IMG/VR virus record: IMGVR_UViG_3300043427_001127
Span: 1-64,000 of that record
DNA length: 64,000 nt
Reading direction: 5' to 3' (one strand)
Source of the DNA: a virus
Part shown: positions 4,350-51,928 of the stretch, piece by piece
Numbering within the stretch: the first letter of the stretch is position 1
Layout: the number at the start of each line of letters is the position of its first letter
Program-made: the position numbers and the translations under genes
The notes under the pieces: model-generated
What the model saw: the letters and a program-made list of their open reading frames with translations, nothing else
Told to the model about the DNA's origin: nothing
The model's database searches: none

Positions 4350-4354
4350 AGATT

Positions 4355-26641: not shown

Positions 26642-26643
26642 AA

Positions 26644-26865
26644 ATGAAAGATTATATTCCTGTAGAGGGTTATGACAACCTTTATCGTGACAGGCATACA
26701 GGAGCGATTATAAATACTGATAAAGAAGTATTTGAACAGTCTAGACGTATCAGAAGAAATAATCTGAATCTTTCTCAGATGAACTCTGATATTGAGGTAT
26801 TGAAAAATGAAATGCTAGAAATAAAATCCCTTCTACGAGAGTTTATAAAAGAACATGGCACTTAG
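26644..26865 (+). CDS. Small conserved cyanophage protein with coiled-coil C-terminus
   Basis: VEGYDNLYRD..TGAIIN motif. Confidence 0.8.
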   Translation: MKDYIPVEGYDNLYRDRHTGAIINTDKEVFEQSRRIRRNNLNLSQMNSDIEVLKNEMLEIKSLLREFIKEHGT

Positions 26866-29800: not shown

Positions 29801-31939
29801 GATATTGTAAGTAGATTTGAGGAAGATACAGATATTACTGTTCTCACCACCCAACCTAAAATACCAGATTCTGATTTAGGTTTGATTGTAAGTAATACTG
29901 CTATTCAACTACGAGCTCCATCCACAGTAAACAGTTCGGGGCACACATTTGAATATGTTGGTGCTGGTATCAACTATACTGCTTTACCTCAAAACGGTGG
30001 CAGATCTAGAGCAGAGTTCCAATCGGTAGAATCTTCTAGTGGAAAATCGTATGTAAGTGCCACTGATCAAGATGGTAACTTCTTTGTTGGACCTTTCTTC
30101 CGAGTAGATTTAAGAACTGGTAAAGCTACTTTTAGCGGAGCAGTTGCTCTTGGCGTTCTTGATGAACTACAGTTAAAAGCATCCCCAGGTGTTCCAATCT
30201 ATGAGTTCTCTACAGATGACACTTTAGGTGGTGGAACTGGTTCAAAAAATACTGCTCTACCAACACAGAAAGCAGTAAGAGATTACATCAACAAACCTTC
30301 GGTATTAGGAAATCTTATTGGATTAAATAAAACAACCAGTCGTGCTCCTGGTCAACTTGTTCTCCTGGATAGCAACGGAAGAATCAACTCAGAGTTGTTA
30401 CCACCTGCAAATCCAGTAAACGTTTTTACAGTAGCAAACGAAGCAGAAAGACTAGCATTAACAATCGCAATACCTGGAGATGTTGCATATCAGACCGACA
30501 CAGAAATAGCTTATATTCTTCTTGATGAACCAGCAAACAATCCAGATAACTGGAATGTATTCAGTGGTACTAACATTAATGCCAACAATATTGTTTCTGG
30601 CATTATTTCTCCAGCAAGACTTGGAACTGGCATTGCAAACGAGTCGGTATTTTTATCTGGTATCAGTAAGTATTCTCCAGTAACACAGGGTCTTATTCCA
30701 TCAACTAACTCCCCAGTTCTTATAAGTGGAAACAGATTAAATGTTTTAAAAACAGGAAGTACAAAAAATGTCAGTTCCGCTACGTGGAATGGCACCACAT
30801 TAAAAGCAACAGTAACTACAACCACTGCACATGGATTGACAAATAATCAATGGGTGGAAGTGGAAGCTATCTTCCCATATGGTTATAATGGATTTTTCCA
30901 AGTTACTGTAACAACACCAACTTCATTTACATATGATTTAGCATCAGATCCAGGAGAATATGTCTCAGAAGGATTTGTGACATCTGGCGTTAGATATGAT
31001 GCTGGTTTTACAGAACTTGATGTAAGAAGATCTAGTTTCTTTAGTGGGCAGACATCTGGAAGCAGTGATGTAGGTGTAGTTAAATATGATTGGAGGACGT
31101 TTGAGATTGATCCTGCATCAGTCTTAGCACTACGAGAAAAAGGTGTCACTCTAGGAAAACTAGAAAATATTAAGAGAAGAACATTACTTGGAAATAATGA
31201 GTTCCCAACTTTATCAAACGACGAAGGAAACGTTCTTGAACTAGGATTAGGTGAAGATGTAGAACAAGTTACAGTTTTTAATGTATCCTTATTAAACGGT
31301 CAGTATAGAATAGTTGATAGAATCATTGATAAAGATCTAGGAACGTTACCGACCTTACAGTTAGTTCCTGGAAAATCTTATAAGTTAAATCTGTCTGTTG
31401 CAGGTGAACCATTCTTTATTACAACCGAACCCAAAGATATTTTAGAACCCCTAGAAACTGCACCATCATCAAACTACACAGATGGGGTAAGAGTAACTAA
31501 CAGGGAATCTGGTATTTTATATTTTACTGTTCCGTTTGATGCTCCAAGCATTCTATATTATCAGTCTGGAAATACTGCAGATAACTACGGTATTATTGTT
31601 GTTAGTTCATACGAAGAGCCTGGACTTTCTTTTGTTTCTTCTTTTGCTCCATATGCTATTGATTCTTTTGAAAAGAATAAAACTAATACCTGCAAATATT
31701 TGATTCAAGTTACAGAAAATGAAGGCACTACTATTAGAGTGCATTCAACAGAAATCATGTTAGTTCATGATAATATTGATGTTCTTTTAACTGAGTATGC
31801 AACTCTAGTTAGTGATGTTTATCTTGGTTCTTTCAGTGCCGAAATAAATAATAATGATGTTAGATTATTGTTCACTGCAAATAATCTACTATCAAATCCA
31901 AACCTCAAGATTAAAGTTATAAAAACACAAATGTTTTGA
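26855..31939 (+). CDS. Tail fibre/tailspike-like structural protein (1694 aa)
   Basis: N-terminal TFEQQR motif; four G..GDFY...LYGPK...W repeats; beta-helix-type entry (VIFVNRNGSD...SGEYYED.PI.VP..SIVGDNLR); C-terminal KYLIQV...EIMLVHD..EYA module. Confidence 0.75.
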   Translation: MALREVLKNYTFEQQRQVINDIGGDIGDLSLLTTAQTDIVSAINAIGNSLDPTSGLFLNGPTDPENTTGTNGDFYLNIVTEELFGPKENNVWPTEPINFKGLLFGETNPTPSDGVLGSFYIKTTTQDLFGPKTETGWDLAAISLSPQLLSGSGEPSSSLGKNNDYYLDLTSRDLYGPKTEGDWAEPISLSEQFLSGSGAPLSTVGKINDFYIDTTSRNLYGPKTSGGWGIPIPLSEEEVGTVIFVNRNGSDDRNGLSVRNSVKTLKKACEIARNTNGNVTIRMFSGEYYEDNPIYVPKGTSIVGDNLRETIVRPLNDGEDFLWVTSGSYINYLVFRDNYGDVSNPSDASRGVGVLNTGADREISPTETVINLFPGHTLKRVDGIFKDGANILTFRRQEIIDYAFNQMVLEYPDLVIPDGIDQGGDATCKRDIGYFIDGLINDLKYGGNMHSIDVGQSYFDALGNLDHIVGEFEETKYAFNRASFAAKAYVQDAATVNNNPEFVEDYGTIIEGDCSNVVTNIDNLTSIVISILDGNDAPRINPGPGYVLVNQEWMEVDDLDGNVLTIKTRNINNPITGEQALVEPARHISGSVITQGARTWRYAVAYPDQDGIVCKGRVSLQTSTPIVTGTNTKFTEQCFAGGFIRFDDLDSNPSNDTTYKILSVTNDTQLVLVTTPTANLSARKFRFIPPKERIFLSPYTQNCSAISVLGDSYSEVINGVETYDASKTRAGGILVDGDQLEPNTPIKSMVCDAFTQVVSGGIGFHLKNDGYAQLVSVFEVFEDVGVLCESGAYTSITNSATNFGNEGLKAIGYSNNPYPFFIGNVSEINNLTKTNFNSVPSNIITSTFEEENTKVRMFVKVSSVDIGKFEPNQSLNIDSHILPNPASSAAITSLQSYINGTTLEVNRIVLSDNIVEILLDISWNSAYETLNGSQTGEVTVTGGATYTEIEITGFDAKALPNYVIKFPTINLPPHPSGVEYVVDIVSRFEEDTDITVLTTQPKIPDSDLGLIVSNTAIQLRAPSTVNSSGHTFEYVGAGINYTALPQNGGRSRAEFQSVESSSGKSYVSATDQDGNFFVGPFFRVDLRTGKATFSGAVALGVLDELQLKASPGVPIYEFSTDDTLGGGTGSKNTALPTQKAVRDYINKPSVLGNLIGLNKTTSRAPGQLVLLDSNGRINSELLPPANPVNVFTVANEAERLALTIAIPGDVAYQTDTEIAYILLDEPANNPDNWNVFSGTNINANNIVSGIISPARLGTGIANESVFLSGISKYSPVTQGLIPSTNSPVLISGNRLNVLKTGSTKNVSSATWNGTTLKATVTTTTAHGLTNNQWVEVEAIFPYGYNGFFQVTVTTPTSFTYDLASDPGEYVSEGFVTSGVRYDAGFTELDVRRSSFFSGQTSGSSDVGVVKYDWRTFEIDPASVLALREKGVTLGKLENIKRRTLLGNNEFPTLSNDEGNVLELGLGEDVEQVTVFNVSLLNGQYRIVDRIIDKDLGTLPTLQLVPGKSYKLNLSVAGEPFFITTEPKDILEPLETAPSSNYTDGVRVTNRESGILYFTVPFDAPSILYYQSGNTADNYGIIVVSSYEEPGLSFVSSFAPYAIDSFEKNKTNTCKYLIQVTENEGTTIRVHSTEIMLVHDNIDVLLTEYATLVSDVYLGSFSAEINNNDVRLLFTANNLLSNPNLKIKVIKTQMF

Positions 31940-31947
31940 TTAGATTT

Positions 31948-32142
31948 ATGGAAAACGTTATTATTAGTACAAAACAAAACTTTGAAAATCAGATTAAAGA
32001 AGTTGACGAAAAAATTGAAACTCTTCAATCTGATTTAGAAAAACTCAAAGAGTATAAACTCAAACTGCAAGGCGGATTGGAAACCTTAGAGATTATTATT
32101 AAAGAAACCACAAATACAGAGGAAACAACCTCAGAGGATTAA
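31948..32142 (+). CDS. Small coiled-coil protein
   Basis: ATG 31948 in ORF 31936..32142; EYKLKLQGGLETLE. Confidence 0.75.
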   Translation: MENVIISTKQNFENQIKEVDEKIETLQSDLEKLKEYKLKLQGGLETLEIIIKETTNTEETTSED

Positions 32143-32477
32143 TGTCTGCATATTCTATTAATCTACCCGTAGAAAAAAACGCAAACTTCGACACCACATT
32201 AACTATTGCCGATGAAGACAATGGATTGCCTTTAAATCTTACTGGATTTACTGCGGAGGCAAAGATGAAACGTTCTTTTGCGTCCACCACATCTCATGCC
32301 ATGAGTGTAGAGTTTGTTGATAGATTATCTGGTGTTATTAGATTATCTTTGACCCCGCAACAGTCATCAGTCCTGACCGCAAAAAGATATGTTTATGATG
32401 TTGTAATAACTTCTCCTTCTGGAGTTAAAACTAGAGTTGTTGAAGGCATTGTAGAAGTTTCTCCAGGAGTAACCTAA
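32142..32477 (+). CDS. Virion structural adaptor (BppU N-terminal-like Ig fold)
   Basis: PLNLTGFTAEAKMKR...G.IRLSLT..Q...L...RYVYDV......RVVEGIVEVSPGVT. Confidence 0.75.
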   Translation: MSAYSINLPVEKNANFDTTLTIADEDNGLPLNLTGFTAEAKMKRSFASTTSHAMSVEFVDRLSGVIRLSLTPQQSSVLTAKRYVYDVVITSPSGVKTRVVEGIVEVSPGVT

Positions 32478-33169
32478 TGGCAGACTATAGAGTTACGGTA
32501 GGGGGAAGAAAACAATATAAGGTAGGAATCAGTTATCAGATTCCTTCTAAATCATTACAATATCTAAATGAGATACTAGACGATTTTAGTGGAGAGTTTG
32601 ATGATAACAATACCTCCTTCTTATTAAAGTTAGAAGGCGAACCCTACTACCCTATAAATGAACAACAAATTTTAGTATCATTGAATAATATTATTTTAGA
32701 ACCAAAAGTTGATTATCAAATCACTGGAAATACTATTGTCTTTACTACACCACCACCACAAGGTTCCGAGTTTTTCTGTGTTGCTATGGCAACTACAGCA
32801 GATTTAACCAGAACTATTAACTTTATTATCGAAGCTGGTTCTGGTGATATGACTCCTGGAATAAAAGGTCAAGTTACATTAGATATTACTGGTACTATAG
32901 ATTCTTGGACAGTCATTGCCGACCAACCTGGATATGCTTTATTGGACATAAAAAAATGTTCATATCAAAACTATCCGTTAATGACATCCATAACAGGTAC
33001 AGAAAAACCATACATAGGAAGTCCTAATAATCCAACAGAAACAAAGAGAAAAGACGAAGATTTATCTACCTGGGACCGCTTATTAAATGCTGGAGATATT
33101 TTACAATATGAGATTGTTGCTGCTTCAAATGTTAAACGATTATTAGTTGCATTAAAGGTTCATTTGTGA
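32477..33169 (+). CDS. Virion structural protein
   Basis: LDD..FD....F.L...LVSLN....EP..DY...G..I.F..PP module, also present in gp7, plus a C-terminal beta domain. Confidence 0.75.
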   Translation: MADYRVTVGGRKQYKVGISYQIPSKSLQYLNEILDDFSGEFDDNNTSFLLKLEGEPYYPINEQQILVSLNNIILEPKVDYQITGNTIVFTTPPPQGSEFFCVAMATTADLTRTINFIIEAGSGDMTPGIKGQVTLDITGTIDSWTVIADQPGYALLDIKKCSYQNYPLMTSITGTEKPYIGSPNNPTETKRKDEDLSTWDRLLNAGDILQYEIVAASNVKRLLVALKVHL

Positions 33170-33198
33170 TAAATACATGTATGCAACTTTGCTATTCT

Positions 33199-33231
33199 TA
33201 TAAATAAAAGAAAAAGAGAAATCCCTGGAGG
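33199..33231 (+). promoter_or_regulatory. Late promoter TATAAATA and strong RBS GGAGG
   Basis: TATAAATA 33199-33206; second ATAAATA 33169-33175; GGAGG 33227-33231. Confidence 0.85.
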
Positions 33232-33239
33232 AAATTTAA

Positions 33240-34319
33240 ATGGCACTTCTAGTTCCAAATATTGGTGAATTAGACTCACTACGTTATCTCATCAACCAAA
33301 GCAATCACGTTGCTGATAGAGAAGATACCGCACCTAGAGATCTTGTTTTAAAACTATTTTCATCGGACACAACTCCTGCTGAGAATGATGTACCTTCTCA
33401 GTCTGCCTATTACGAGCCTTATCAGAATGATGGCAGCTTTGGTTACGGTTCAGCTATTGAGACTGGTTACCCAACTTGCGTCAACAACCGCACAGAAGCT
33501 CGTTACGATTACGATTCGCAGTATGGTATTCTTCTAAACGGTTCACGTTGGGGAATCACCCAATCAGGCGGAACTACAACTGCTACCTATCCCGAGCAAA
33601 CCTTTACTTTCACTGGTGCTGCTGGTAACGTTTATGGTTACTACATCACCCGCGCCAACAACATGCCACTAGCACTTCAAGGTGTTCTTGATGCTGCTAC
33701 TGCTTCAGCTGGCACTACAATCACTAAGGGTGAAGCAGGTGCTGCTGGCACTAAGGATTGTATCGGTCTGATCAACACCAACTTCATCACCGTTCCTACC
33801 ACTGCTAACAGTGCTTCATTCGGTGGTGTAGATGACCTAACTATCGGCATGATTGCTGGTGGTAACGCTGCTATCCCAGCAAACACTAAGGTTATCGGTA
33901 TTGAGAGAACCACTACAACTGATTCTCCTTACAACGGTCACAGAGTATACCTAAGCGCAAACCTAACCGCTAACATTCAGGACGCTACCGATCCTACTGT
34001 TGAGTTTTCATTCGGTAAGGTTGTAACTGATGTTGCACACCAACTACAGCCTGGTGACGTAATCTATATTGCTGGTGGTACTTCAACTACTGGCGGTACT
34101 GTTGCTGCTAACACATATACTGTTTACAAAGTAAACTCAACAACTGAGTTCACAACTACACCAGCACTTCTAACCTCGGGTGGCACTGCTTTCACTGGCA
34201 ACAGTGACGTAACTCTCTACAGCGCAATCATGTACGCTGAGAGATTCACAAACGGTCCTTACGAGATTCAGAACAACGGTGACCAGATTAAGATCACCCT
34301 CAACATCAGCCTCGACTGA
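33240..34319 (+). CDS. Highly expressed structural protein, putative major fibre/appendage subunit (359 aa)
   Basis: Own promoter, RBS and terminator; strong TAC/AAC/TTC/ATC/GGT codon bias; LVLKLF..DTTP...YPEQTFTF...YGYYI...AERF...GDQIKITLNISLD core. Confidence 0.7.
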   Translation: MALLVPNIGELDSLRYLINQSNHVADREDTAPRDLVLKLFSSDTTPAENDVPSQSAYYEPYQNDGSFGYGSAIETGYPTCVNNRTEARYDYDSQYGILLNGSRWGITQSGGTTTATYPEQTFTFTGAAGNVYGYYITRANNMPLALQGVLDAATASAGTTITKGEAGAAGTKDCIGLINTNFITVPTTANSASFGGVDDLTIGMIAGGNAAIPANTKVIGIERTTTTDSPYNGHRVYLSANLTANIQDATDPTVEFSFGKVVTDVAHQLQPGDVIYIAGGTSTTGGTVAANTYTVYKVNSTTEFTTTPALLTSGGTAFTGNSDVTLYSAIMYAERFTNGPYEIQNNGDQIKITLNISLD

Positions 34320-34354
34320 TATCTCCTAGAAAAGAATACTTTTCTATATTATTT

Positions 34355-34385
34355 GGGGATTGCTGCCTTGGCAATCCCCTTTTTT
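34355..34385 (+). terminator. Rho-independent terminator
   Basis: GGGGATTGC-tgccttg-GCAATCCCC-TTTTTT; preceded by a second hairpin TAGAAAAG-aata-CTTTTCTA (34327-34346). Confidence 0.9.
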
Positions 34386-34408
34386 ACTAAAAGAGGGCTT
34401 GGTAATAC

Positions 34409-37400
34409 ATGGCGTCATACGTTTACGATAGTAACGACAGTTATCCTTTTTCCTCAGTAGATAATGGGTTTGTCTACGTCAGACCCGCGACATCTACTGA
34501 GGATTTTGGTGCTATTAACGTATCTGCCACTTCACAAGAATCATATGCAGAAATAACAGTAAAGCAAAACAACGATACTGCGTTTGGTTTTGCTACTGTA
34601 AATGGTACTGCAAAGTACTATAAACCTAAAAAATATTCTTACTCATCATCTTCTGATAATCTCTTCGCTGAAGAAGATAATGGGTTAATAACTAATGCAA
34701 AGACTTCAACGGATGATTACGGTACTCTAACAGCTGAAGATGGCATAAGCGTTAGAGAAGACAGGTATCGTATTGATGTAAGTCAAACCATCTTGGCAAT
34801 GGAGCCAGGATACACATATTCATCAGCATCTGCTCTAGTAGCGTTTGTAGAAAAAACAGATGCTTCTACTTTGTTATTATCAATCTATGGCGGTTCTTCG
34901 TTAACTGGAGTTACTGCTGCTATTTCTAAAGTTGCTATTGCTTGGGTTGGTAATGGAACTCCATTTGAGATTGGTGGGTCTGCTAATGAGATTGTAAAAG
35001 CATTCTCAACAGTCGGAACTTCTGGTCCGCTCCGATTGGATGTCGCCTCAACAGAGGCGCATATCAGAAGCTATGACTTTGAAAATGTACTGCCATTCAA
35101 CATAGTTGATTATGGTTCTCTTGGTTTAGTATCAAACCCTGATATTGATTTTGGGTTTGTGTCTCAACCAAATGCTGGGGGGGAAAAGGATTACGGGCTG
35201 ATCGTAAATGATTCTGAAGAAACGCCATTTGGTCTCTACGAAACAAATGGTATAGGTTTAGAATCTTTCAGCAAGCAAACACCAGCAGAAACAGTACCAT
35301 TTACATTAAGTGGCGAAGTTGTTCTACCTCTTGCTGTAAGCATCAAAGGTGTTGGATCTGTAAACCTCAGTGGTGCAGCAGTTGAGAAGAATACCGAAGA
35401 TTATGTAGGAACAGGTAACCTATTCAATACCTCTGGTGCTGCCGAAGTATTTGGCGCAAACCCACCAGAAGACTTCTCGCTATTTGATATTACTGGTAGT
35501 GCAGCAGAAAAGAATACTGAAAGATATATTGGAAATAGTATCGTTTCTATTACATTATCGACTTCTTCTAATAAAATAAACACTAATAGTTTTATTGGTG
35601 TATCTATATCAGGTTCTGGTACTGGTGTAGGCGCTAACGGTGGATTTAATATTGGCAGTCACTTTAAATTTGATGGAGTTGGTGCGAGAAGATTAGATTT
35701 ACAACCTTTGAATGTTGGATCATATAACACTATCCAGTTCACTGCCATTCGTGGAAATGACAATAACGGGGGAGAAGATCCCGATACATCCACAGAAAGT
35801 TTAGTTCTTCAGTATAGTATTAATAATGGTAATACATTTACAAATGTTGGAAATATTGTTACATATAACGATGCGTCATTCAACAACTTAAAAAGTGTAT
35901 CTTTAGTAATACCAAATGATGCCAAAACATCTTCAACAATTTTTAGGATTTCTCAGTCTTCTTCTAGTGGTACTGGATTTGATAACTACGGCATAACCGA
36001 AATATCATTATTATCATCTCCACCAACAAGTATAGTATTCTCCAATGGATATACTAACCTGAAGTTCACCAGTGGTGCTGGAGAAACCACGCAACTCTTC
36101 GCTCTAAGCGGTTCTGGGGTGGAGAAGAACACCGAAGACTATGTAGGTACTGGAAGCACCTCAATCAGCGTTGTGAGCGTTGAGAAGAACACTGAGACGT
36201 ATGTAGCAGAACTAGCAGGAAATGTCACAGATCTATTCGCTTCCTACGGCGATCTGACGGCAGTAACAGAGTCTGAAGATTATGGTCTCATCACGCAGTC
36301 TGCAACTAATGTAGATTATCGCTATCTCTCTAGTGATTACTATGATATTAACGGTGCTGCCGTTGAGAAGTTTATTGCACAAACACCAGAAAATACCCAG
36401 CTCTTTACATTCTCTGGTGCTGGCGTAGAGAAGTTCACAAGTCAAGGTGGAGAGACAACTCAACTATTCCAGTTCACTGGAGCAGCGATAGAGAAGAATA
36501 CTGAAGACTATGTTGCTTCTGGTACATTCTCTACATTCTCTGGTGCTGCAGAGTCTGTAACTTACCGCTACAGCTTTGATTCGTTCATCCCATTCACCGA
36601 GTTTGACTACGGCAGTGTTACTCAATCACCAACAAACGACATTGATCTTGGTAGTGTCAGTGCTCCTAATACAGGTGGCGAAAAAGATTATGGTTCAATC
36701 ACATTTATTAATGAAGTAGTCCCTTATGGATTGTGGACTACATCTGGATTTGCTATTGAACTGTTTAGCAAGAATATTGTTGACAATGGCGGTACAATCA
36801 CCCTCAGTGGCGAAGTTGTTCTACCTCTCGCAGTAAGTATTATCGGTGTTGGATCTGTAAATCTCACTGGATCTGCTGTAGAGAAGAATACAGAATCTTA
36901 TGTAGGTATTGGTAATCTCTTTAACACTTCTGGTGCAGCTGAAGCATTTGGTGCTAATCCGTCCGAAGACTTCTCGCTATATGACATTAGCGGAACAGCA
37001 ACAGAGAAGTTCAGAGCAAATCCACCAGAAGACTTTGCTCAGTTTACTCTTTCTGGTGCGTACAGCAACCTCAAGTTCACCACTCAAGGTGGGGAAACAA
37101 CTCAACTCTTTAGTATTTCTGGTGCAGCTGTAGAGAAGAACAGAGAGTCTTATGTTGGTACTGGTAGCACTTCTATTGATGTTACTAAGGTTGAGAAGAA
37201 CACTGAGTCTTACACAGTTGCTCAAGCATCTATTCATGTTCTCTCTGATTATGGTGATCTCAGAGAGTCTGCTGGATCTACAGAAGACTTTGGATTAATC
37301 ACATCTGCTGCTACTGAGTTTGAGACTGCTGGTAGCGTAGTAAGAGATTACCTCAAGCTATTTGGTTATGCGGTAGAAAAACTTGTTGCTCAGACACCAG

Positions 37401-40400
37401 AGAATACACAACTATTTGATACTAATGGTACTGCGGTTGAGAAGTTTGTTGCTCAAACACCAGAACAAACAGTAACCTTTACATATACTGGCAGCAGTGT
37501 AGAGAAGAATACTGAGTCTTATGTTGGTACTGGTCAGGCAACATTAGATGTATTCTCAGAACTCAGAAAACTCATACCAGCATATGTTGGATTTGGTTTC
37601 GCTTTCACAACCAATGGTTCTGCAGAAGCGTTTGGTGCAAACCCACCAGAGAATACACAACTATTCCAAGTATCTGGTGCTGCTATAGTCAAGGTCAATC
37701 CAAAATGGAATGGTTCGGGTACTATCAATATTGATATTACATCGGTTGAGAAGCACACCGAATCCTATGTTGGCACAGGTACTCTATTTGAGTTCATTGA
37801 TTCGGATGAAAGCAGAACCTATGTCTATGATCTAAACGACGTAGTACCGTTCCTAGATGTTGATTATGGTTCTATCAGTGCTGCCGCATTTATAGAGATT
37901 GATTATGGTACTGTTGCTGGTGCATTCTCTGGTGGCGAAGTAGATTATGGCACAGTAATCTTCACCGAATCTGTACTACCATTCGGTTCAATCAACCTAA
38001 GTGGTGCTGCGATTGAAGCATTCTCTCCAAATACCCCAGAGAATACTCAGATCTTTGTTATCTCGGGCGCAGCTGTTGAGAAGAATACGGAATCTTACGT
38101 TGGTGTTGGAACTGAATCTATTACTGGTAGTGCAGTTGAGAAGAACACCGAAGATTATATTGGTGTTGGCAATCTCTTCAATGCTTCTGGTGCAGCAGAA
38201 TCTACTGGTGCCAACCCACCAGAAAATATCCAACTCTTCGCTACTAGTGGCAATGCAGTTGAGAAGTTCAGAGCGAACCCACCAGAAGATTTTGCACAGT
38301 TTATATTCTCTGGTGTTGCGGTAGAGAAGTTTACTACTCAAGGTGGCGAAGATACTCAGCTCTTTACTCTCAGTGGATCTGCAGTTGAAAGGAATACTGA
38401 ATCTTATGTTGGTACTGGAACTCTATTTGAGATTGTTGATAAGATTGAAAGTAGAACGTATGACTACACTGTATCTCAATCCAATCTACTAAGTGTAGAT
38501 GATTATGGATTGATTACTGATGCCATTACTTCTTCCGAAGATTATGGCACTGTTGACATAGCATTCACACAAACTGAATCATATGGTGCAGTAGACTTTG
38601 ATTTCTTATTCCTAAGAGGAACTGCCTCAGAATCTTTTGGAGAAGGATTATATACTGCTTCTGGTACTATTACTATCAGTGGTTTTGGCAAGGTACGCGA
38701 GATTCCACGTTGGGTCAGCAAGGATGGCACAATCACTATCAGTGGCACTGGTACAGTACCTGTATCCGTTGCTGAAATCGGATCTGGTAATCTATTTACA
38801 TCATCTGGTGCTGCTGAAGTATTTGGTGCGAACCCACCAGAAAATATTCAGCTATTCCAAACAAGCGGAACAGCAACAGAGAAGTTCAGAGCAAACCCAC
38901 CAGAAGACTTTGCTCAGTTTACATTCTCTGGTGTTGCTATCGAGTCTGCTGGATTCAATCCACCAGAGAATACACAAAATATTTCCGTAACTGGTGTTGC
39001 TGTTGATGTAACTTCTGTATCTGAGATTGGCACTGGATCTCTATTCACTGCATTTGGTGCTGCTGAAGTATTTGGTGCAAATCCACCAGAATCCACACAA
39101 CTCTTTGTCTACTCAGGTGTTGCTACCGAGAAGAACACAGAGTCTTATATTGGCGCAGGAACAACTGAGATTGACGTTACACACACAATGCGTTTCGTTC
39201 CAAACTGGATCGGTAATGGAACAATCAATATTGATGTCGAATCTACTGAAAAGAATACCGAATCTTATGTTGGTTCTGGTAACGCATTCACATTTATTGA
39301 TTCTGAAGAGAGAAGAACTTACGATTACACAGTTGAAACTGTCGAAGTTGTCAATGAGTATAGAAATCTTATTAAGGATGCTACAACATCCACAGAAGAT
39401 TATGGTCTGATTTCTTCTATTGCCAGTGAGTTTATTGATAACGGCACTACAGTAAGAAACTACATTGAGATTATTCCAACTTCTATTGTTCGCTCAACTC
39501 CCAGAGAGATTGCTTCTGGTTCTCTATTTGCAACATCTGGTGCTGCAGAAGTCTTTGGAGTCAACCCACCAGAGAATACACAGCTATTCACATACACTGG
39601 TGCTGCTTCTGACATCAAGCACACTGAGTCCTGGGTCGGTACTGGATCTCAAACTCTCACAGGTGAAGGTGACGAAGATCTCGTCAAGTCCTTCGTTGGA
39701 TCTGGTGTTCTCGTTAGCATCAGTGGATCAATCTTCTTCATTGGTTACTTCCCATATACTGATTATATTACATTCTTCACATCTGGTGCTGCTTCTTATA
39801 AGGAAGTCAACGCCTTCAATGGAACTGGCACAACAACCACATCTGGTTCTGCTGTAGTTACAAACACAGAATCTTATGTCGGTACTGGATCTCTATTCGG
39901 ATTTAGTGGTGCTGCTGAGTCTGTAACTTATGTTTACAATATTGATGTTGTTATCGGATTTAATGAAGTTGATTATGAGTTTGTTACTGAGATTCCATCT
40001 ATTGACATTGATTATGGATCTGTCGCTCTACCACCAACTAGCGGCATATTTGATTATGGATATATTCGTTACGAAGAAACTATTATTGGTGCGACAGGTC
40101 AGTTTACTTTCGGTGGTTCTGCAGTTGAAAGCAACACAGAAAGATACATTGGTACTGGCAGCACTTCTATTGATGTATTCTCAACCGAAAGAAACACAGA
40201 AAGCTTCAACGGTTCTGGTAACCTATTCACCGCATCTGGATCTGCTGAAGTATTCGGCGCTAATCCCCCAGAAAACACTCAACTCTTCTCTGTATCTGGC
40301 GTTGGCAATACTAGAGAGATTGCAGTCTACACAGCATCTGCATCTGGCACAACCACTCTCAGTGGAGCAGCGGTTGAGAGAAATACCGAAGATTATGTTG

Positions 40401-43400
40401 GTGATAATCCAATCTTTACGATTGATGTATTCTCCACAGAGAAGAACACTGAAGCATTTGCTGGCACAGGAACAGAGACACTCAGCGGTGTTGGCGCAGA
40501 GAAGAACACCGAGTCCTACGTTGGAACTGGCACCTTCTCTGTTCTGTCTGGCGCAGTGGAAGCATTTGGTGCTAATCCACCAGAGAACACTCAACTATTC
40601 ACTTACACTGGAGCTGCTACAGAGAAGAACACTGAGTCTTATGTTGGTGTTGGAACTGAATCTATTACTGGAACAGCAGTTGAAAAGAACACCGAAGCAT
40701 TCGTTGGTTCTGGCACAGAGACTTTAAGTGGTGCTGGTATTTACAATACCACCGAAGTTTACATCGGTACTGGTGTTGTTTCTACAATCTCTGGTGCTGC
40801 TGAAGCATTTGGTGCCAACCCACCAGAAGATATTACACTATTCACCTACACTGGAGCTGCGGTAGAGAAGAACACCGAGTCCTACGTTGGCACAGGATCC
40901 ACAACTGCAAGCGGTGTCTGTGTAGAGAAGAATACGGAAGCGTTTGTTGGATCTGGTTCCTTATCCACTGTTTCTGGTGCGGCAGAATCTTTCACTGTCA
41001 ATCCACCAGAAAATACACACCTCTTCGTCTCTTCTGGTGTCGCAGAAACTAGAGTTATCTATCTCTACAGATTTGAAACAGACGGTCAAGGAACATACAC
41101 AATCTCCGTATCTCATGTTGAGAGAAATACAGAAGCATATGTTGGTACTGGTTCTACCACTGCTTCTGGTGTTGCCATTGAGAAGAACACAGAGACATTC
41201 ACTGGATCTGGCGAACTCTTCACATTCAATGGTGCTGCAGAAAGCAGAACAATCAACCCAGAAGAAGACGTTGTTCTCTACACCTTTGTTGGTACAGCAA
41301 CCGAGAAGAACACAGAATCTTGGGTTGGTACTGGAACAGAGACACTATCTGGTACTGCAAAAGAAAAGAATACAGAAGTATATGTTGGCACTGGAACTAC
41401 CACTGCTTCTGGTATTGCTGCGGAGAAGAACACCGAAGTTTACATCGGTACTGGTTCTGTTTCTACTCTATCTGGGGCTGCAGAAGCATTCGGTGTCAAT
41501 CCACCAGAGAATACACATCTATTCGTTTACTCTGGTGCTGCCACAGAAAGAAATACAGAGGCATATGTCGGTACGGGCACAGAGACACTCAGCGGCACAG
41601 CAGTAGAGAAGAATACAGAGTCCTATGTTGGCACTGGATTTATCACTGCTCTATCTGGTGCAGCGGAAGCATTCTCCGCTCAGACACCAGAGAATACGAT
41701 TCTCTTCACATTCTCTAGCTCTGCTGCTGAAGCATTCGTTGCTCAACCACCAGAAGACTTTGCTCAACTTACATTCTCTGGTTTCATCACAGAGAGAAAT
41801 ACAGAAGCACACTTTGGTACTGGCACTGCAACTCTCAGCGGCACGGCAGTTGAGAAGAACACTGAAGCATACAACGGCACAGGAACTCTCACTGCTTCTG
41901 GTGTTGGACTCGAAGCATTTGCGTGGGCAAACTACAACGGAACTGGCTCTCTATTTGCTATCAGTGGTGCTGCAGAGGCATTTGGTGCAAACCCACCAGA
42001 AGATACCTCACTCTTCACCTTCACTGGATTCTCTGTTGTTCTCAATACATACAGCGAAGTTGGCACTGGCACAGAGTTTGTTACTGGCACTGCGATTGAG
42101 AAGAATACAGAATCCTACGTTGGCACTGGTCAACTCTTCAACTACGATGGTTCCGCAGAAAGCAGAACAATCAACCCAGAAGAAAATACTATACTGTACA
42201 CATTTGTCGGATCAGCAGAAGAATCCTTCACCACTCAAGTCGATGAAACGACGCAAATCTTTACTATTAGTGGATCAGCTGTCGAAAGAAACACAGAAAC
42301 ATATTATGGATATGAACAGTATATTACTGGCGGATCTGCTGTTGTTATAGCATACAGATCATATATTGCATCTGGTTCTCTATTTGCAACATCTGGTGCC
42401 GCAGAAGTATTTGGTGTAAATCCACCAGAAAACACACAGATCTTTACTTACAGTGGTGTTGGATTTGAAAGCACAACTAATGTTTACTATCCAGAAGGAT
42501 ACATTTATATCGATATTGATTCTGTTGTCACGGAGACAAAAACATATACTGGTTCTGGTTCTATCTCCAACTTCAGTGGTGCTGCCGAATCTACTGGAGC
42601 AAATCCACCAGAAAATATCCAGCTATTTGTTTACTCTGGTTCTGCTACCGAGAAGAACACCGAATCTTATGTCGGTCTATGTGACATCTCTGTTGATGTA
42701 TTCTCTGTTGAGAGAAATACCGAAACATACGATGCGACTGGAACAGCAACCCTCACTGGCACTGCAGACCAGAGCAATACAGAATCTTATGTAGCATCTG
42801 GCTCGCTATTTGCTATCAGTGGTGCTGCCGAGGCATTCGGTGTCAACCCACCAGAAGATACAGTTCTTTACACATTCACTGGTGCTGCAACAGAGAAGAA
42901 TACAGAATCCTACGAGGGTTCTGGTTCACTTTACAATGTAGGAAGTGGTGCTATCACCAGAGCAGTTGCTATCAACAACACCATTTACGTTACTATCACT
43001 GGTGATTCTGGTGATGCGAGAGCAAGAGTATTTGTTGCTTCTGGCACAGCAACTCTATCTGGCACTGGTGCAGAAAGTTACACTCGTGCTACTTACATTG
43101 CTACTGGCACAGAAACTATTTCTGGAGCAGCAACAGAAAGAAACACAGAATCTTATGTTGGTTCTGGTTCTCTATTTGGTTTCAGTGGTGCTGCAGAATC
43201 CACGGCAGTCGTTCCAACCAGCAATATCTTTGCAACATTCTCTGGTTCTGCTGGTATTGTCAGAACAAATATTGTCATTGGAGATGGCACACTATTCGCG
43301 TTTGATGGTGCTGCTGAGTCTGTTGGAAGAAGACCAGAAAATGATACTGTTCTATTTACAACTAGTGGAGAATCTCAGATTCTATGGAATCCTTTCCGCC

Positions 43401-43429
43401 CACCAAGAAGTTACGTCACCATTATCTAA
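34409..43429 (+). CDS. 3006-aa repetitive structural protein (20/21-aa repeats, DYG blocks, reelin-like insert)
   Basis: Repeats EKNTESYVGTG and SGAAEAFGANPPENTQLF throughout. Confidence 0.85.
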   Translation: MASYVYDSNDSYPFSSVDNGFVYVRPATSTEDFGAINVSATSQESYAEITVKQNNDTAFGFATVNGTAKYYKPKKYSYSSSSDNLFAEEDNGLITNAKTSTDDYGTLTAEDGISVREDRYRIDVSQTILAMEPGYTYSSASALVAFVEKTDASTLLLSIYGGSSLTGVTAAISKVAIAWVGNGTPFEIGGSANEIVKAFSTVGTSGPLRLDVASTEAHIRSYDFENVLPFNIVDYGSLGLVSNPDIDFGFVSQPNAGGEKDYGLIVNDSEETPFGLYETNGIGLESFSKQTPAETVPFTLSGEVVLPLAVSIKGVGSVNLSGAAVEKNTEDYVGTGNLFNTSGAAEVFGANPPEDFSLFDITGSAAEKNTERYIGNSIVSITLSTSSNKINTNSFIGVSISGSGTGVGANGGFNIGSHFKFDGVGARRLDLQPLNVGSYNTIQFTAIRGNDNNGGEDPDTSTESLVLQYSINNGNTFTNVGNIVTYNDASFNNLKSVSLVIPNDAKTSSTIFRISQSSSSGTGFDNYGITEISLLSSPPTSIVFSNGYTNLKFTSGAGETTQLFALSGSGVEKNTEDYVGTGSTSISVVSVEKNTETYVAELAGNVTDLFASYGDLTAVTESEDYGLITQSATNVDYRYLSSDYYDINGAAVEKFIAQTPENTQLFTFSGAGVEKFTSQGGETTQLFQFTGAAIEKNTEDYVASGTFSTFSGAAESVTYRYSFDSFIPFTEFDYGSVTQSPTNDIDLGSVSAPNTGGEKDYGSITFINEVVPYGLWTTSGFAIELFSKNIVDNGGTITLSGEVVLPLAVSIIGVGSVNLTGSAVEKNTESYVGIGNLFNTSGAAEAFGANPSEDFSLYDISGTATEKFRANPPEDFAQFTLSGAYSNLKFTTQGGETTQLFSISGAAVEKNRESYVGTGSTSIDVTKVEKNTESYTVAQASIHVLSDYGDLRESAGSTEDFGLITSAATEFETAGSVVRDYLKLFGYAVEKLVAQTPENTQLFDTNGTAVEKFVAQTPEQTVTFTYTGSSVEKNTESYVGTGQATLDVFSELRKLIPAYVGFGFAFTTNGSAEAFGANPPENTQLFQVSGAAIVKVNPKWNGSGTINIDITSVEKHTESYVGTGTLFEFIDSDESRTYVYDLNDVVPFLDVDYGSISAAAFIEIDYGTVAGAFSGGEVDYGTVIFTESVLPFGSINLSGAAIEAFSPNTPENTQIFVISGAAVEKNTESYVGVGTESITGSAVEKNTEDYIGVGNLFNASGAAESTGANPPENIQLFATSGNAVEKFRANPPEDFAQFIFSGVAVEKFTTQGGEDTQLFTLSGSAVERNTESYVGTGTLFEIVDKIESRTYDYTVSQSNLLSVDDYGLITDAITSSEDYGTVDIAFTQTESYGAVDFDFLFLRGTASESFGEGLYTASGTITISGFGKVREIPRWVSKDGTITISGTGTVPVSVAEIGSGNLFTSSGAAEVFGANPPENIQLFQTSGTATEKFRANPPEDFAQFTFSGVAIESAGFNPPENTQNISVTGVAVDVTSVSEIGTGSLFTAFGAAEVFGANPPESTQLFVYSGVATEKNTESYIGAGTTEIDVTHTMRFVPNWIGNGTINIDVESTEKNTESYVGSGNAFTFIDSEERRTYDYTVETVEVVNEYRNLIKDATTSTEDYGLISSIASEFIDNGTTVRNYIEIIPTSIVRSTPREIASGSLFATSGAAEVFGVNPPENTQLFTYTGAASDIKHTESWVGTGSQTLTGEGDEDLVKSFVGSGVLVSISGSIFFIGYFPYTDYITFFTSGAASYKEVNAFNGTGTTTTSGSAVVTNTESYVGTGSLFGFSGAAESVTYVYNIDVVIGFNEVDYEFVTEIPSIDIDYGSVALPPTSGIFDYGYIRYEETIIGATGQFTFGGSAVESNTERYIGTGSTSIDVFSTERNTESFNGSGNLFTASGSAEVFGANPPENTQLFSVSGVGNTREIAVYTASASGTTTLSGAAVERNTEDYVGDNPIFTIDVFSTEKNTEAFAGTGTETLSGVGAEKNTESYVGTGTFSVLSGAVEAFGANPPENTQLFTYTGAATEKNTESYVGVGTESITGTAVEKNTEAFVGSGTETLSGAGIYNTTEVYIGTGVVSTISGAAEAFGANPPEDITLFTYTGAAVEKNTESYVGTGSTTASGVCVEKNTEAFVGSGSLSTVSGAAESFTVNPPENTHLFVSSGVAETRVIYLYRFETDGQGTYTISVSHVERNTEAYVGTGSTTASGVAIEKNTETFTGSGELFTFNGAAESRTINPEEDVVLYTFVGTATEKNTESWVGTGTETLSGTAKEKNTEVYVGTGTTTASGIAAEKNTEVYIGTGSVSTLSGAAEAFGVNPPENTHLFVYSGAATERNTEAYVGTGTETLSGTAVEKNTESYVGTGFITALSGAAEAFSAQTPENTILFTFSSSAAEAFVAQPPEDFAQLTFSGFITERNTEAHFGTGTATLSGTAVEKNTEAYNGTGTLTASGVGLEAFAWANYNGTGSLFAISGAAEAFGANPPEDTSLFTFTGFSVVLNTYSEVGTGTEFVTGTAIEKNTESYVGTGQLFNYDGSAESRTINPEENTILYTFVGSAEESFTTQVDETTQIFTISGSAVERNTETYYGYEQYITGGSAVVIAYRSYIASGSLFATSGAAEVFGVNPPENTQIFTYSGVGFESTTNVYYPEGYIYIDIDSVVTETKTYTGSGSISNFSGAAESTGANPPENIQLFVYSGSATEKNTESYVGLCDISVDVFSVERNTETYDATGTATLTGTADQSNTESYVASGSLFAISGAAEAFGVNPPEDTVLYTFTGAATEKNTESYEGSGSLYNVGSGAITRAVAINNTIYVTITGDSGDARARVFVASGTATLSGTGAESYTRATYIATGTETISGAATERNTESYVGSGSLFGFSGAAESTAVVPTSNIFATFSGSAGIVRTNIVIGDGTLFAFDGAAESVGRRPENDTVLFTTSGESQILWNPFRPPRSYVTII

Positions 43430-43432
43430 TCT

Positions 43433-43440
43433 TATAAATA
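43433..43440 (+). promoter_or_regulatory. Late promoter TATAAATA
   Basis: Exact consensus before ORF 43471. Confidence 0.85.
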
Positions 43441-43470
43441 AGAAAAGAAAGCACTAGGATAGGTATCTCC

Positions 43471-43659
43471 ATGACTACTAGAGTCAAACTAAGAAGAGGA
43501 ACTACCGCTGAGCACGCTGCTTTTACTGGAGCGGAAGCGGAAATCACATTTGATACGGATAAAAGTACTGTAATCATGCACGATGGAGTAACTCAAGGAG
43601 GATTTGAAGTAGCAAAGCAGAGTACCTCACTTGCCCTGTCAATCGCCCTAGGTGGTTAA
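43471..43659 (+). CDS. Stand-alone Mtd_N-like (major tropism determinant N-terminal) domain protein, 62 aa
   Basis: LRRGTTAEHAAFTGAEAEITFDTDK....HDGVTQGG. Confidence 0.75.
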   Translation: MTTRVKLRRGTTAEHAAFTGAEAEITFDTDKSTVIMHDGVTQGGFEVAKQSTSLALSIALGG

Positions 43660-43688
43660 TCAGTAAAAAATATTCAGAGATATAAAAA

Positions 43689-46600
43689 ATGGCAAAACGT
43701 TTAGTATTTAAATCTACATTTTCCCCTTCAACCAATGAAGTAACTATTGAGGGAAATATTCGTAGAAGAAGACTTCTTCTCATCACTAATGTAAGTAAAA
43801 ATATTATTATCTACAACTTTGCTGAACCAACCCTAGGTGCAACAACATTTAGTTTTGATCCAGTAGAAGAAGAGACAACAATCACTCTGGTGAAAGATTG
43901 TTCTGCTATGGATGAAGATGACACTCTTCAGATCTTCTACGAAGAAGATGCCGTAGCATTTGAACCAGACGAAGCATATACTGACCCTGTATCAAAGTTC
44001 AGAATCTCTGAAGCTCAGACTCTGATTGACACGGACTTTGAATATGGTCTTCAGTCAACCAAGTGGGAAACGATTGAAATGTTAAACAACATTCCATCGT
44101 TCTTTAGTAGAAGTGGCGACACTCCATTGGTTGTGACAGAAGTTGCTGTAACTAACGATAACGATACGATTATCGTAACAGCTCCTTCACATGGTCTTTC
44201 TGTAGGTACTCCACTTGACGTTCGTGGTCTTAGTGTAACTACACTAGAAGGTAGCTACATTATCAAAAACGTACTAGACACAGATAGATTCACATTTGTT
44301 GCCAGAGAGAAAGCAACATTTACTGGATCTGTTTTTGGTTCATATACAACTATTACTCCTGGACAGTTTTATCAAGGTTCTCAAGTTCCTTATAAATCTA
44401 TTTTTACTGATGCGGTAAACCCATCAACCATTACGATTGAAACTCCATATCCATCTGGGTTTGTTAATGGAGCTGCATTCTATCTAACTAACACCATTGC
44501 TCTCAGTAACATTTCATTTGATGCTACTCTGGTCGATATCACTGATACCTTGACAACAACTGCAACTGTTAACCCAACAGGAACACAGTCTATTGGAACA
44601 TTAGATTCTTATAATGTAACTATTTGGGATAAGCAAGGATTATCTGGTGTTTCAAATACCAAAGCATTTACTAGTGACGCTGTTGATGCAACAACAAATA
44701 ATATTACACTAACTGCACACGGATTCTCTGATAACCAAGCAGTAGTTATTTTTCCTGCGTCTGGTGCTACAATGCCTGGCGGTGTAACAGGTGGTCGTGC
44801 ATATGTTCTCAGAACTATTGACGCCAATACTTTCTATCTAACAAGATACTGGAGTTCAACAACTAAAGTAGATATTACTTCTCAAGGTAGTGGACAGTTT
44901 GCTATTGTTAGAGCGCATGGTGTAAGAAGCATCAACTATAGCAACGATCAAATCAAGTTCTTTGATAATCCTGGATGGGCTAGTTCACAGAGATTTGTTT
45001 ACTACAGAGGTGATCAAAGCCCTGCTCTCATTCAGCAATCATCTGCTGGTACTACTGGTCCTGCTGATGCTGTTGGCACTATCGCAGACTGGTATACTGC
45101 GGATTCAGCAAACTTAACCAGTACATATTTTGTTACTGGTGGTGCTTCTGCAGATTGGACCATCAACTCAACTTCAACTGGTGCATATAATGTTACTGAA
45201 GGTCCACTTCTAGCAATCAACTCACTCAGAAAAGAGTTTGGTTCATTTAGTGGAACTGGAAGTATTAGCGGAACAACACTAACTATTTCTTCTGTTACTG
45301 ATGGTCGCTTAGCTATTGGAAGCGTTCTATTTGGCGGTACTCCTGCGATTACAGCTAGCACCAGAATCACTGCTTTCGGAACTGGAACTGGTGGGATTGG
45401 AACATACACCGTCAACAACAGTCAAACTACTTCTGGCACGATTACTGGCAACTTACAGTATGAACCAGATTCTCTTGGCGTTACTATTTTAAATGCAACT
45501 TCTCGCAAGGGAACTCAACATGGTGGATCAAACAGTGGCATTGCCCTTGTAACACCAAACATGATTTCTGGTAACTTTATTAACTTTGGCTCTGGTACTT
45601 CTGTATTTACCGATGGTACTGGTGTCGCAGTTATTCCTCTTCCAGGAACAACTCTACCTACTGGTCTAGTTGCTGGCAGAGCATATGCCATCAGAACCAC
45701 TGGAGTTGCTAGTGCTACACCAGCAGCTCCTGCTCTTACATTAGTACAAAACGGAACAACTGCACAAACACTATCTGGTTTCAGTGGACCTGGATTCCTA
45801 CTCGTTGCTGGTATGGTTATTAACTCAGTTGCATCTGGTAGTGCTACCATTACCATGCAAGGTACTGATGTTAACAACAACAACGCTGGTAGAGGATTCT
45901 TAATTAACGGAAACCTTGACCAAAAGTTTGTTTACTATAGAGGTCCATCACTAAACGTTCTATCTTCAACTGGTAACGTATTCCAAGGTGCGGAAGCAAA
46001 CACTGCTCAATGGTATAATAGTGCTGTAAGTAGTACATTTATTGGATCTGTAAGTACAACAAACGCAAGTGCTACAATCACAGTTAGTGGATCACCAACT
46101 GCAATCACAGGAACTTTAGAAATCGGTTCTGCTATTTCTGGTCCTGGTATTCCTAATGGAGCATTTATTCTTGCCTTCGGAACTGGTACTGGTGGTGCTG
46201 GAACATATACAATGAGTGCAGCAGCTACTTCTACAACCAGTGGTGTAATCACTGCAGTAAATACTACCTTAGGAACTACTTATTTCTCCAGGTCTTATCC
46301 AGCTGCTACTACAATGACTCTTGCGACGACAAGAGGTGGTACAGCATTTACATTCAGTGCTGCTTACACATTTGCAGCTGGTGGTCAGATTCACCTACTT
46401 GTTCCTTATCGTTCACTTGAAACTGCTTCCACTATTTTCCACGCAAATCATGGATACAGTGATAACGATGTTGTAAGATACGATGCCAATGGAAACACTG
46501 CTATTCCTGGTCTCACAACAAATACTGATTACTTCGTAAGACGCTATGATGCCAACAGATATGGTCTATCACTAGCATCTAATGGTGTTAGAATAAACCT

Positions 46601-50305: not shown

Positions 50306-51928
50306 ATGACGAAAGAAGTTCAGTTTAGAAGGGGGACTACAACTCAGCATAGCACCTTTACGGGTGCTCTTGCTGAGGTAACTGTTGATACTGATAAAAA
50401 GGTTGTCGTAGTACACGATGGCGTGACTGCTGGTGGGCAGGAAATGGTTGGTAGAACCGCTACACAAACCCTAACAAATAAAACACTCACCTCACCCGCC
50501 ATCAATGGTGGAACAATCAATAATGCTTCTGTTGGAGCTACCACCAGAAGCAGCGGTGCTTTCACCACCCTAGATGCAAATGGCAACGTTATCCTCGGAA
50601 GCGATTCTTCGGATACTGTTACTATTAACGGCATTGTAAATAGTAACCTCGTTCTCGGAACTGGAGTTCAGATTCAGGGACCAGGAACACTTGTTATTGA
50701 TCCAGCTACAGTTGGAGATGACACTGGTACAGTTCAAATCAAAGGTAACCTAGAAGTTCTCGGAACTACTACTACCATTGACTCAACTACAGTAACATTC
50801 AATGATCCTTTGATTGTTTTGGGTGATGGTCAGACAACTTCCGCTACTGTTGATACTGGCGGTTTTACTTTAGGAACTACTGGTATTAGTATTCAATATA
50901 ATCATGCTAACAGTAGATTTAACTGTACCGAAGATTTTCATCTTGCTAATGGAAAGGCTTATGAAATCAATGGCACTGTAGTTCTTTCTTCATCTGCAGT
51001 TTTAGGCAAAACAATCGGCGGTACGAACACAGGTGATATTGTTTCTATTGATGGCACTCAAACACTGTCTGGCAAAACCTTAACTGCACCTAGATTTGTT
51101 GATACTGGATTCATTGCAGATAGTAATGGCAATGAACTTTTAGAGTTTGGTGTAACTGCCAATGCTGTTAATGAAGTTAAGATTACCAACGCTGCAACTG
51201 GAACTACTGGTCCACTGATTCAATCTTTTGGAGAAACTAACGTTGATTTGAGATTGTCTGGTAATGGAACAGGTGATATTGTTATCGTCAATGATAGTGC
51301 TTTAAAACCACTGGCAGGTACAACATCTAAAGCTCCAATCCAGTTTACTGTAGGTTCTTTGTTGACAACCGCAACAGCGGGTGCGTTTGAGTATGACGGC
51401 ACACAGTTTTATTTGACGAATGCAGATACTGCTAACGGCAAAAAGTATGTAGAGACATTAAATAGATATCAAGTAACAGCAAACAATACTGCTATTACTG
51501 GTACTGCTATTATTGATGCATTCCCTGCAACAAGTAGTTTTCCTTTCCTTGCTGGTGCATACTATGAGATTGAATATCACATGTATTGGATTCGCACCAC
51601 TACTGCTGGTACACATACATACACATTAGTCAGCACACAAAACTGGCAATATGCTGCATTAAGTTCTCAAGGTTTACAAAACGCTGGTGTGGTTGGTCAA
51701 CATGTCAGTTCTTCCAACGCAGCTTCATTAGCACTTCCAGCATCTGCTTCAATGGCGATTGGTAACCATTACCATGTTGTGAAGTCTTATTTCTTAGCAA
51801 ACGCAACTACTGCTGGAAATATTCGCTTGCGTGTCACTTCTTCTGCTAACGGTATTACACTGCAGAGAGGCAGTTTCTACACTGTAAGAAGATTGCCTGC
51901 TGGAAGTATTGGAACTTTTGTTGCGTGA
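50306..51928 (+). CDS. Tail fibre protein with Mtd_N-like N-terminus (540 aa)
   Basis: VQFRRGTT.QH..FTGA..EVTVDTDK....HDG.TAGG; QTLTNKTL and GNLEVLGTTTTI fibre motifs. Confidence 0.8.
   Translation: MTKEVQFRRGTTTQHSTFTGALAEVTVDTDKKVVVVHDGVTAGGQEMVGRTATQTLTNKTLTSPAINGGTINNASVGATTRSSGAFTTLDANGNVILGSDSSDTVTINGIVNSNLVLGTGVQIQGPGTLVIDPATVGDDTGTVQIKGNLEVLGTTTTIDSTTVTFNDPLIVLGDGQTTSATVDTGGFTLGTTGISIQYNHANSRFNCTEDFHLANGKAYEINGTVVLSSSAVLGKTIGGTNTGDIVSIDGTQTLSGKTLTAPRFVDTGFIADSNGNELLEFGVTANAVNEVKITNAATGTTGPLIQSFGETNVDLRLSGNGTGDIVIVNDSALKPLAGTTSKAPIQFTVGSLLTTATAGAFEYDGTQFYLTNADTANGKKYVETLNRYQVTANNTAITGTAIIDAFPATSSFPFLAGAYYEIEYHMYWIRTTTAGTHTYTLVSTQNWQYAALSSQGLQNAGVVGQHVSSSNAASLALPASASMAIGNHYHVVKSYFLANATTAGNIRLRVTSSANGITLQRGSFYTVRRLPAGSIGTFVA

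Follow-up and report, generated by a model that had tools for sequence, protein, structure and literature searches.

To our knowledge, virion fibres of the bead-on-rope design have been described so far only from a few short-tailed phages, and only on a small scale. Fiber I of phage GP4 consists of five gp80 dimers threaded on a rope protein that has its own gene (PMC13730344). In phage A1002, 11 gp40/gp41 dimers lie along a rope segment of ∼300 Å (∼226–268 residues), each engaged with it in an augmented β-sheet (PMC13730344), which therefore amounts to ∼20–24 rope residues per dimer. Phage VP1 has bead dimers for which no rope was identified (PMC13730344). Here we describe two adjacent genes, P0001 (359 residues) and P0002 (3006 residues), in bases 1–64000 (the window) of the 171,625-bp IMG/VR virus record IMGVR_UViG_3300043427_001127. 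The explanation we favour, at somewhat better than even confidence, is that P0001 and P0002 are the two components of a scaled-up chain-like (beads-on-a-rope) fibre on the virion of a T4-like cyanomyovirus.

Results

A gene pair with a conserved layout in nine loci

The pair was compared across nine loci, comprising the window, three metagenome contigs and the isolates S-SCSM2R, S-SSM7, S-CAM1, S-CAM3 and Sf-FS3, which belong to different genera. All nine share one gene order, in which small genes of ∼67, 111 and 235 residues are followed by a P0001-family gene (335–475 residues) and then by a giant gene whose product has 1369–3772 residues. The giant proteins are homologous to each other (blastp, 1e-13 to 1e-95), and their nine aligned C-termini share one tail motif (Table 1). 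Strong autocorrelation peaks at 20, 21, 41 and 81–84 residues are present in six of the nine; S-SSM7, S-SCSM2R and Sf-FS3, which have the three shortest ropes, give weak 20- or 21-residue peaks only. The candidate bead and rope genes are adjacent and co-inherited at every locus, as a chain-like fibre would have it, and the co-occurrence of a subunit gene with a downstream repeat gene, which an earlier note on this DNA had proposed as a check, is borne out in 9/9 loci.

The transcription signals follow the same plan. A late promoter lies 35–50 nucleotides upstream of the P0001-family gene in all nine loci; one of the eight relatives reads GATAAATA rather than TATAAATA. Directly after this gene each locus has a G+C-rich hairpin and a T-run, the giant gene begins shortly beyond, and in none of the nine does a late-promoter-like octamer lie between the terminator and the giant gene. 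Within the window, TATAAATA occurs 10 times on the + strand and not at all on the − strand. Nine of the ten copies are intergenic, 18–146 nucleotides upstream of gene starts, and the octamer therefore acts as a real T4-type late promoter. The G+C-rich stem and T6 that follow P0001 form the top terminator-like site within 26000–45000. From the T-run to the P0002 ATG (34409) the gap is 23 nucleotides, and the 400 nucleotides upstream of this ATG hold no late-promoter-like octamer with one mismatch or fewer.

These data agree with the earlier note in giving P0001 a consensus late promoter and a GGAGG ribosome-binding site, and in finding nothing promoter-like between the terminator and P0002. Two of its statements need qualification. 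A double-hairpin terminator was described, and both hairpins do occur in this phage; the G+C-rich hairpin alone is kept in relatives, so the term is valid for this phage only. A strong high-expression codon bias was also claimed. The third-codon usage of P0001 (C 0.29, A 0.20; rank 7 of the 121 open reading frames of the 171.6-kb genome) does resemble that of the major capsid gene gp23 (C 0.30, A 0.18; P0002, 0.20), whereas its effective number of codons, 40.5, is unremarkable.

The P0001 core and solved bead subunits

P0001 matches phrog_10467, a PHROG of unknown function (E 1.3e-109), and no Pfam family. The AlphaFold2 model (predicted local distance difference test (pLDDT) 74, predicted template modelling score 0.76) is all-β, with an N-terminus that is disordered yet highly conserved. 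A gp80-like core is predicted to comprise residues ∼1–140 and 330–359, and β-barrel domains, which differ between P0001 relatives, to be inserted at ∼147–330. A profile search of 1.84 billion proteins matched P0001 to many phage proteins of ∼135 residues, which align with its N-terminal, middle (95–140) and C-terminal (302–332) parts. Because the two families match profile to profile in hhalign (probability 100, E 2e-39), P0001 is, as judged from these alignments, an enlarged form of the ∼135-residue protein with one insertion of ∼50 and one of ∼190 residues. At least 915 clusters of the P0001 family are present in marine metagenomes.

Four partly independent leads point from this core to bead subunits; each is weak alone, and their weight comes from their agreement. 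The top structural match of P0001 among 48,161 PDB representatives is 8jou_a (Z 7.3, root-mean-square deviation 4.5, 111 of 136 residues), identified as GP4 gp80, which contributes 10 chains to entry 8JOU; this Z score lies within a range often reached by unrelated folds. Of the 30 ESM Atlas clusters nearest to P0001, 14 carry PF23140 (Gp80), with a score of 0.95 and 194 shared features, and a 194-residue Atlas cluster, 15% of whose members carry PF23140, aligns with P0001 at a TM-score of 0.66–0.72. P0282, a member of the ∼135-residue family, scores 22.6 bits against PF23140 (E 1.5e-4), under the gathering cut-off of 27 bits; GP4 gp80 itself scores 140 bits. Among 177,635 PDB sequences, the best match to the ∼135-residue family profile (positions 5–110, E 0.4) is the 171-residue chain of 26la/44nx, which by length and entry is the A1002 bead subunit gp41 (PMC13730344). 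We infer that the P0001 core is homologous to the gp80 and gp41 beads.

Foldseek with the P0001 model returned no PDB match at E ≤0.001 and, among viral models, the S-CAM3 homologue and weak rows only; phmmer and profile searches with P0001 and its family against the PDB found nothing relevant. A Hoc-like capsid decoration protein was also considered for P0001 and set aside on the lack of an Ig-like or Hoc match and on linkage of the gene to the repeat gene, not to head genes. Elsewhere in the genome, a 131-residue open reading frame (126109–126501) matches P0001 over three short stretches (E 1e-15) and may, by this similarity, encode a paralogue of the inserted β-barrel module.

P0002, a periodic repeat protein

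P0002 matches phrog_11522, also of unknown function, over 17 stretches (E 1.6e-233), and its family comprises at least 339 metagenome clusters. The motifs E[KR]NTE (n = 36) and [NQ][PT]PE (n = 25) are spaced at exactly 20 and 21 residues, autocorrelation peaks at 20, 21, 41, 61 and 81–82 residues, and the two motifs are alternative forms of a single unit beginning S-G-A-A-x-E. The strict repeat period reported in the earlier note is thereby upheld, its example positions 40441, 40501, 40621 and 40681 falling at residues 2011, 2031, 2072 and 2092. The note also allowed room for ∼100 units. A hidden Markov model (HMM) of the unit finds 61 at a score ≥2 and 80 at any score, with none in shuffled sequences, so the real number is ∼60–80, not ∼100. 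Within this genome the units are confined to P0002. In the first two thirds of the protein short runs of units alternate with non-repeat modules, and the last part is a near-continuous run that ends in the conserved tail (Table 1). This tail may, by analogy, be an anchor, because the anchoring domains of A1002 are likewise C-terminal.

P0002 is predicted to be all-β, and its repeat profile has no match in the PDB. In the model of a 481-residue stretch β hairpins are predicted, but the stretch alone does not reach a confident fold (pLDDT 33). A β-solenoid, which the repeats might otherwise form, finds no support in this monomer model. This prediction is weak evidence for a rope: the lack of a confident fold would suit a rope but also an obligate oligomer.

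The same property would suit a repeat protein that has to be kept soluble. P0001 could then act in assembly without being structural, as a chaperone or other assembly factor that is overproduced for the sake of the aggregation-prone P0002 and is absent from the finished virion. Fibre chaperone genes often adjoin fibre genes, as T4 gp38 and gp57A do, a neighbourhood that P0001 shares, and the 111-residue protein encoded upstream resembles a fibre assembly protein. Fibre chaperones are, however, usually encoded downstream and do not usually have capsid-like codon usage together with their own promoter and terminator. The resemblance of the P0001 core to virion bead proteins also argues against this role, and the variable surface inserts suggest exposure to selection on the particle. 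We consider a chaperone improbable.

The earlier note likened the pair to a tail tube with its tape measure. A tape measure is a helical protein of the tube interior, and its gene neighbours those for the tail chaperones. In the strict form of this idea P0002 would lie inside a P0001 polymer and set its length, with the same many-to-one logic and a periodic scaffold. The evidence makes this very improbable indeed. P0002 is predicted to be all-β and not mostly α-helical, it contains inserted globular domains such as the Reelin-like one, and it matches no tape-measure family in Pfam or PHROGs. Its gene and that of P0001 sit among fibre genes, with gp8 on one side and gp13 on the other, and not where tail-tube, chaperone or tape-measure genes would be expected; the P0001 model has no significant match to a tube protein. 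A rope fits these features, and the presence of a P0002 homologue among virion proteins (see below), better than a tape measure does.

A 20-residue period beside gp80-like genes in other phages

In GP4, gp79 (325 residues; 27948–28925, − strand) is encoded immediately downstream of gp80 and has a 20-residue period over ∼220 residues (0.204 versus a median of 0.095). The period of P0002, whose units would provide regularly spaced docking segments, matches both that of GP4 gp79 and the number of residues of the A1002 rope gp39 per dimer. The PDB has no sequence entries for GP4 gp78 or gp79. Just past its 20-residue repeats, gp79 has V-P-R-S-Y-R-V-I-Y, to be compared with the tail P-P-R-S-Y-V-T-I-I in the window; this likeness could be chance.

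The association extends to other phages. With GP4 gp80 as the query, tblastn gave matches in 492 phage records, of which 412 are from mycobacteriophages. In one of these, Melc17 (2789–4369), the 'minor tail protein' gene adjoins the gp80-like gene on its upstream side, and its product repeats with a period of 20 residues (0 of 200 shuffles) in ∼7–8 units. Chain-like fibres may, on these similarities, exist on siphophages as well. In two metagenomic phages the protein encoded two genes downstream of the ∼135-residue gene is also periodic at 20 residues (0.273 and 0.144; 0 of 200 shuffles).

A different arrangement was observed in a T4-like marine myovirus contig, in which a 142-residue member of the ∼135-residue family (6001–6429) is encoded between gp13 and gp15 homologues and no gene within 6 kb has a 20-residue period. 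This may be a bead that serves at the neck and has no rope.

One fibre or two independent proteins

Evidence on virion location comes from S-SCSM2R. ORF111, the P0002 homologue, was found by mass spectrometry in purified virions (PMC12801897). In the GenBank record of S-SCSM2R (20001–25240), 'tail fiber rope protein' is the label of the bead homologue, 'tail adaptor protein' that of the 230-residue neighbour and 'TolB' that of the rope homologue. The S-SCSM2R report regards 'TolB' and the 'large exoproteins' as probably non-structural (PMC12801897). The three labels look misassigned.

Several results weigh against a chain-like fibre, beginning with the Z score of the gp80 match noted above. 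P0001 and all 30 aligned relatives lack PF23140 even at E 10 and so fall outside that family by sequence, and comparison by hhalign with gp80 or its alignment gave nothing significant for either the P0001 family or the ∼135-residue family. P0001 is also 2.5 times the size of the solved beads, which bears on packing at a 20-residue pitch. On the side of the rope, GP4 gp79 is only a candidate for the published rope protein, and unit HMMs gave no cross-match between the cyanophage rope and the other 20-residue-period proteins. No clear periodic neighbour was found in the T4-like marine contig, Psychrobacillus phage PVJ1 or Roseobacter phage CRP-5; the link between gp80-like genes and a 20-residue period is therefore frequent, not universal. 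Finally, the passages of the S-SCSM2R report on virion proteins do not mention the bead homologue ORF110, and those on electron microscopy do not mention thick fibres (PMC12801897).

Some of these results would be expected if P0001 and P0002 were two independent virion proteins. P0002 would then be a self-sufficient, probably trimeric β fibre or adhesin and P0001 a separate abundant component, for example a protein that decorates the particle or gp80-like dimers fixed at another site, as in VP1, where bead dimers occur with no identified rope (PMC13730344). Adjacency and the terminator would reflect only differing expression levels in the fibre module. The failure of P0001 to enter PF23140 and the gp80-like genes without a periodic neighbour are in keeping with such a pair, as are the many giant repeat proteins that T4-like cyanophage fibre modules carry side by side. 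It accounts less well for the strict adjacency and identical terminator layout of nine loci from several genera, for the recurrence of the 20-residue period beside gp80-like genes of unrelated phages and for the confinement of the repeat units to P0002 in this genome. Two independent proteins are thus an unlikely explanation, though one that carries real weight beside the beads-on-a-rope fibre.

Genomic setting

On gene order and family matches, the source is a marine T4-like cyanomyovirus and the window covers its baseplate, fibre and neck module, with homologues of gp6, gp7 and gp8, then giant proteins (2989, 2813, 1694, 3006, 2194 and 1771 residues), then gp13, gp14 and gp15. P0001 and P0002 sit among the fibre genes between gp8 and gp13. 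The closest isolates are the Synechococcus phages S-SCSM2R, S-SSM7 and Sf-FS3 (55–59% identity in P0001). The three small upstream genes match phrog_580, phrog_1084/3304 and phrog_10330; the 111-residue protein resembles an L-shaped-tail-fibre assembly protein, and the 230-residue protein is a 'virion structural protein' in PHROG.

An Mtd_N domain (PF18454, E ∼1e-15) begins both the stand-alone 62-residue protein encoded after P0002 (43471–43659) and a 540-residue fibre protein (50306–51928), and the small Mtd_N gene comes after the rope gene in relatives too. At the start of the window, positions 1–2000 have a G+C content of 0.52, against 0.31–0.46 elsewhere in the window, and the open reading frame 496–891 is likewise high in third-position C. 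This DNA may be host-derived or recently gained.

Table 1. Coordinates of the gene pair, its signals and adjoining features within the window.
Feature	Position	Strand	Basis or remark
Three small genes (68, 111 and 230 residues)	31936..33169	+	Found ahead of the pair at all loci compared
T4-type late promoter TATAAATA for P0001	33199..33206	+	Octamer match, position upstream of gene
Ribosome-binding site GGAGG	33227..33231	+	8 nucleotides upstream of ATG
P0001, 359 residues, candidate bead subunit	33240..34319	+	Fold, feature and profile evidence
A+T-rich hairpin	34327..34346	+	Minimum-energy fold, z −2.9; not kept in relatives
Intrinsic terminator: G+C-rich stem 34355–34379 (11 pairs, 6 G-C) and T6	34355..34385	+	
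P0002, 3006 residues, candidate rope	34409..43429	+	Motif spacing, unit HMM, autocorrelation, phrog_11522
Reelin subrepeat-B-like domain, P0002 residues 416–533	35654..36007	+	Pfam PF21471, E 2.5e-15
Near-continuous run of 20/21-residue units, P0002 residues ∼1902–3006	40112..43426	+	Motif spacing, unit HMM
Conserved C-terminal tail, P-x-R-[ST]-[YF]-x-[TW]-I-I	43397..43426	+	Nine C-termini aligned
Next late promoter	43433..43440	+	Opens the following unit: 62-residue Mtd_N gene, 2194-residue gene

Discussion

The data suggest a model for the beads-on-a-rope fibre. P0002 would be the rope, a long and mostly extended β-strand chain in which each 20/21-residue unit offers a docking strand, and P0001 the bead, whose gp80-like core would dock on the units by β-sheet augmentation, probably as dimers. 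The ∼190-residue inserted β-barrel domains of P0001 would point outward as multivalent adhesion modules. With 60–80 units, a rope would hold ∼60–80 beads if each unit binds a monomer and up to ∼160 if it binds a dimer; at ∼27 Å per dimer, the pitch in A1002, the repeats would span ∼80–220 nm.

Transcription would set the copy ratio, with P0001 driven by the late promoter at 33199 and most transcripts halted by the terminator at 34355–34385. P0002 would be made solely by read-through, from the 33199 promoter and from a promoter upstream, which would yield a small amount of 9-kb rope message and keep the rope scarce and the bead abundant. The predicted excess of beads fits the capsid-gene-like codon usage of P0001. 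Binding, stoichiometry, read-through and the anchored end are the parts of the model that we infer. A predicted complex of two P0001 copies with four units (residues 2011–2092) scored 0.25 and 0.02, below the mark and with no controls, and counts neither way. The earlier note had proposed an abundant subunit on a rare periodic scaffold, joined by strand complementation in a non-T4 appendage; the nine-locus layout, the bead-like core and the 20-residue period in other phages give this proposal comparative support.

If the model is correct, the fibre design of three podophages extends to myoviruses at 6–16 times the size, and a function can be assigned to two large families that have had none. 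The fibre would be a highly multivalent, length-programmable host-adhesion organ, and variation in the bead inserts could influence host range. T4-like cyanophages rank among the most abundant viruses of the sea, and most of their giant repeat proteins carry no annotation or a wrong one, the 'TolB' of S-SCSM2R being an example. A 20-residue period beside gp80-like genes offers a simple signature for genome-wide searches for such fibres.

More tentatively, and at somewhat less than even confidence, gp80-like beads on ropes with a 20-residue period may be a general fibre principle in podo-, sipho- and myoviruses. The cyanomyoviruses described here would be its extreme case, with ropes of 1369–3772 residues and up to ∼80 units, a bead about equal in abundance to the major capsid protein, variable adhesion domains in their hundreds and read-through as a conserved device for setting the ratio.

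Among known assemblies, the tail tube with its tape measure is similar in that one long protein sets the length of an assembly of many subunits. It differs in that P0002, a predicted all-β protein of the fibre module, would be decorated on the outside, as expected by analogy with GP4 and A1002. The likeness to chaperone-usher pili is conceptual only: a subunit whose β-sheet is incomplete receives the missing strand from a different polypeptide, which in the pili is the next subunit and not a separate periodic rope.

The A1002 fibre, from a Pseudomonas podophage, is closer. Its bead and rope genes are neighbours, as here, and its ∼20–24 rope residues per dimer match the period of P0002. Its rope gp39, however, carries a nozzle domain on the same chain and winds around the tail tube, and two bead proteins are used, whereas the locus described here has one bead gene and a stand-alone rope of 3006 residues with interspersed globular modules. 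GP4 differs in scale and in phage type: its fibre has five dimers, against 30–80 predicted here, its bead has 140 residues, against 359 with a ∼190-residue insert, and it is a Ralstonia podophage, not a T4-like myovirus, with no significant sequence match between the beads. GP4 nevertheless shares the proposed two-part design of a small bead and a rope encoded apart from it; no structure matches the P0001 model better than gp80, and in both phages the bead gene lies directly upstream of a gene with a 20-residue period.

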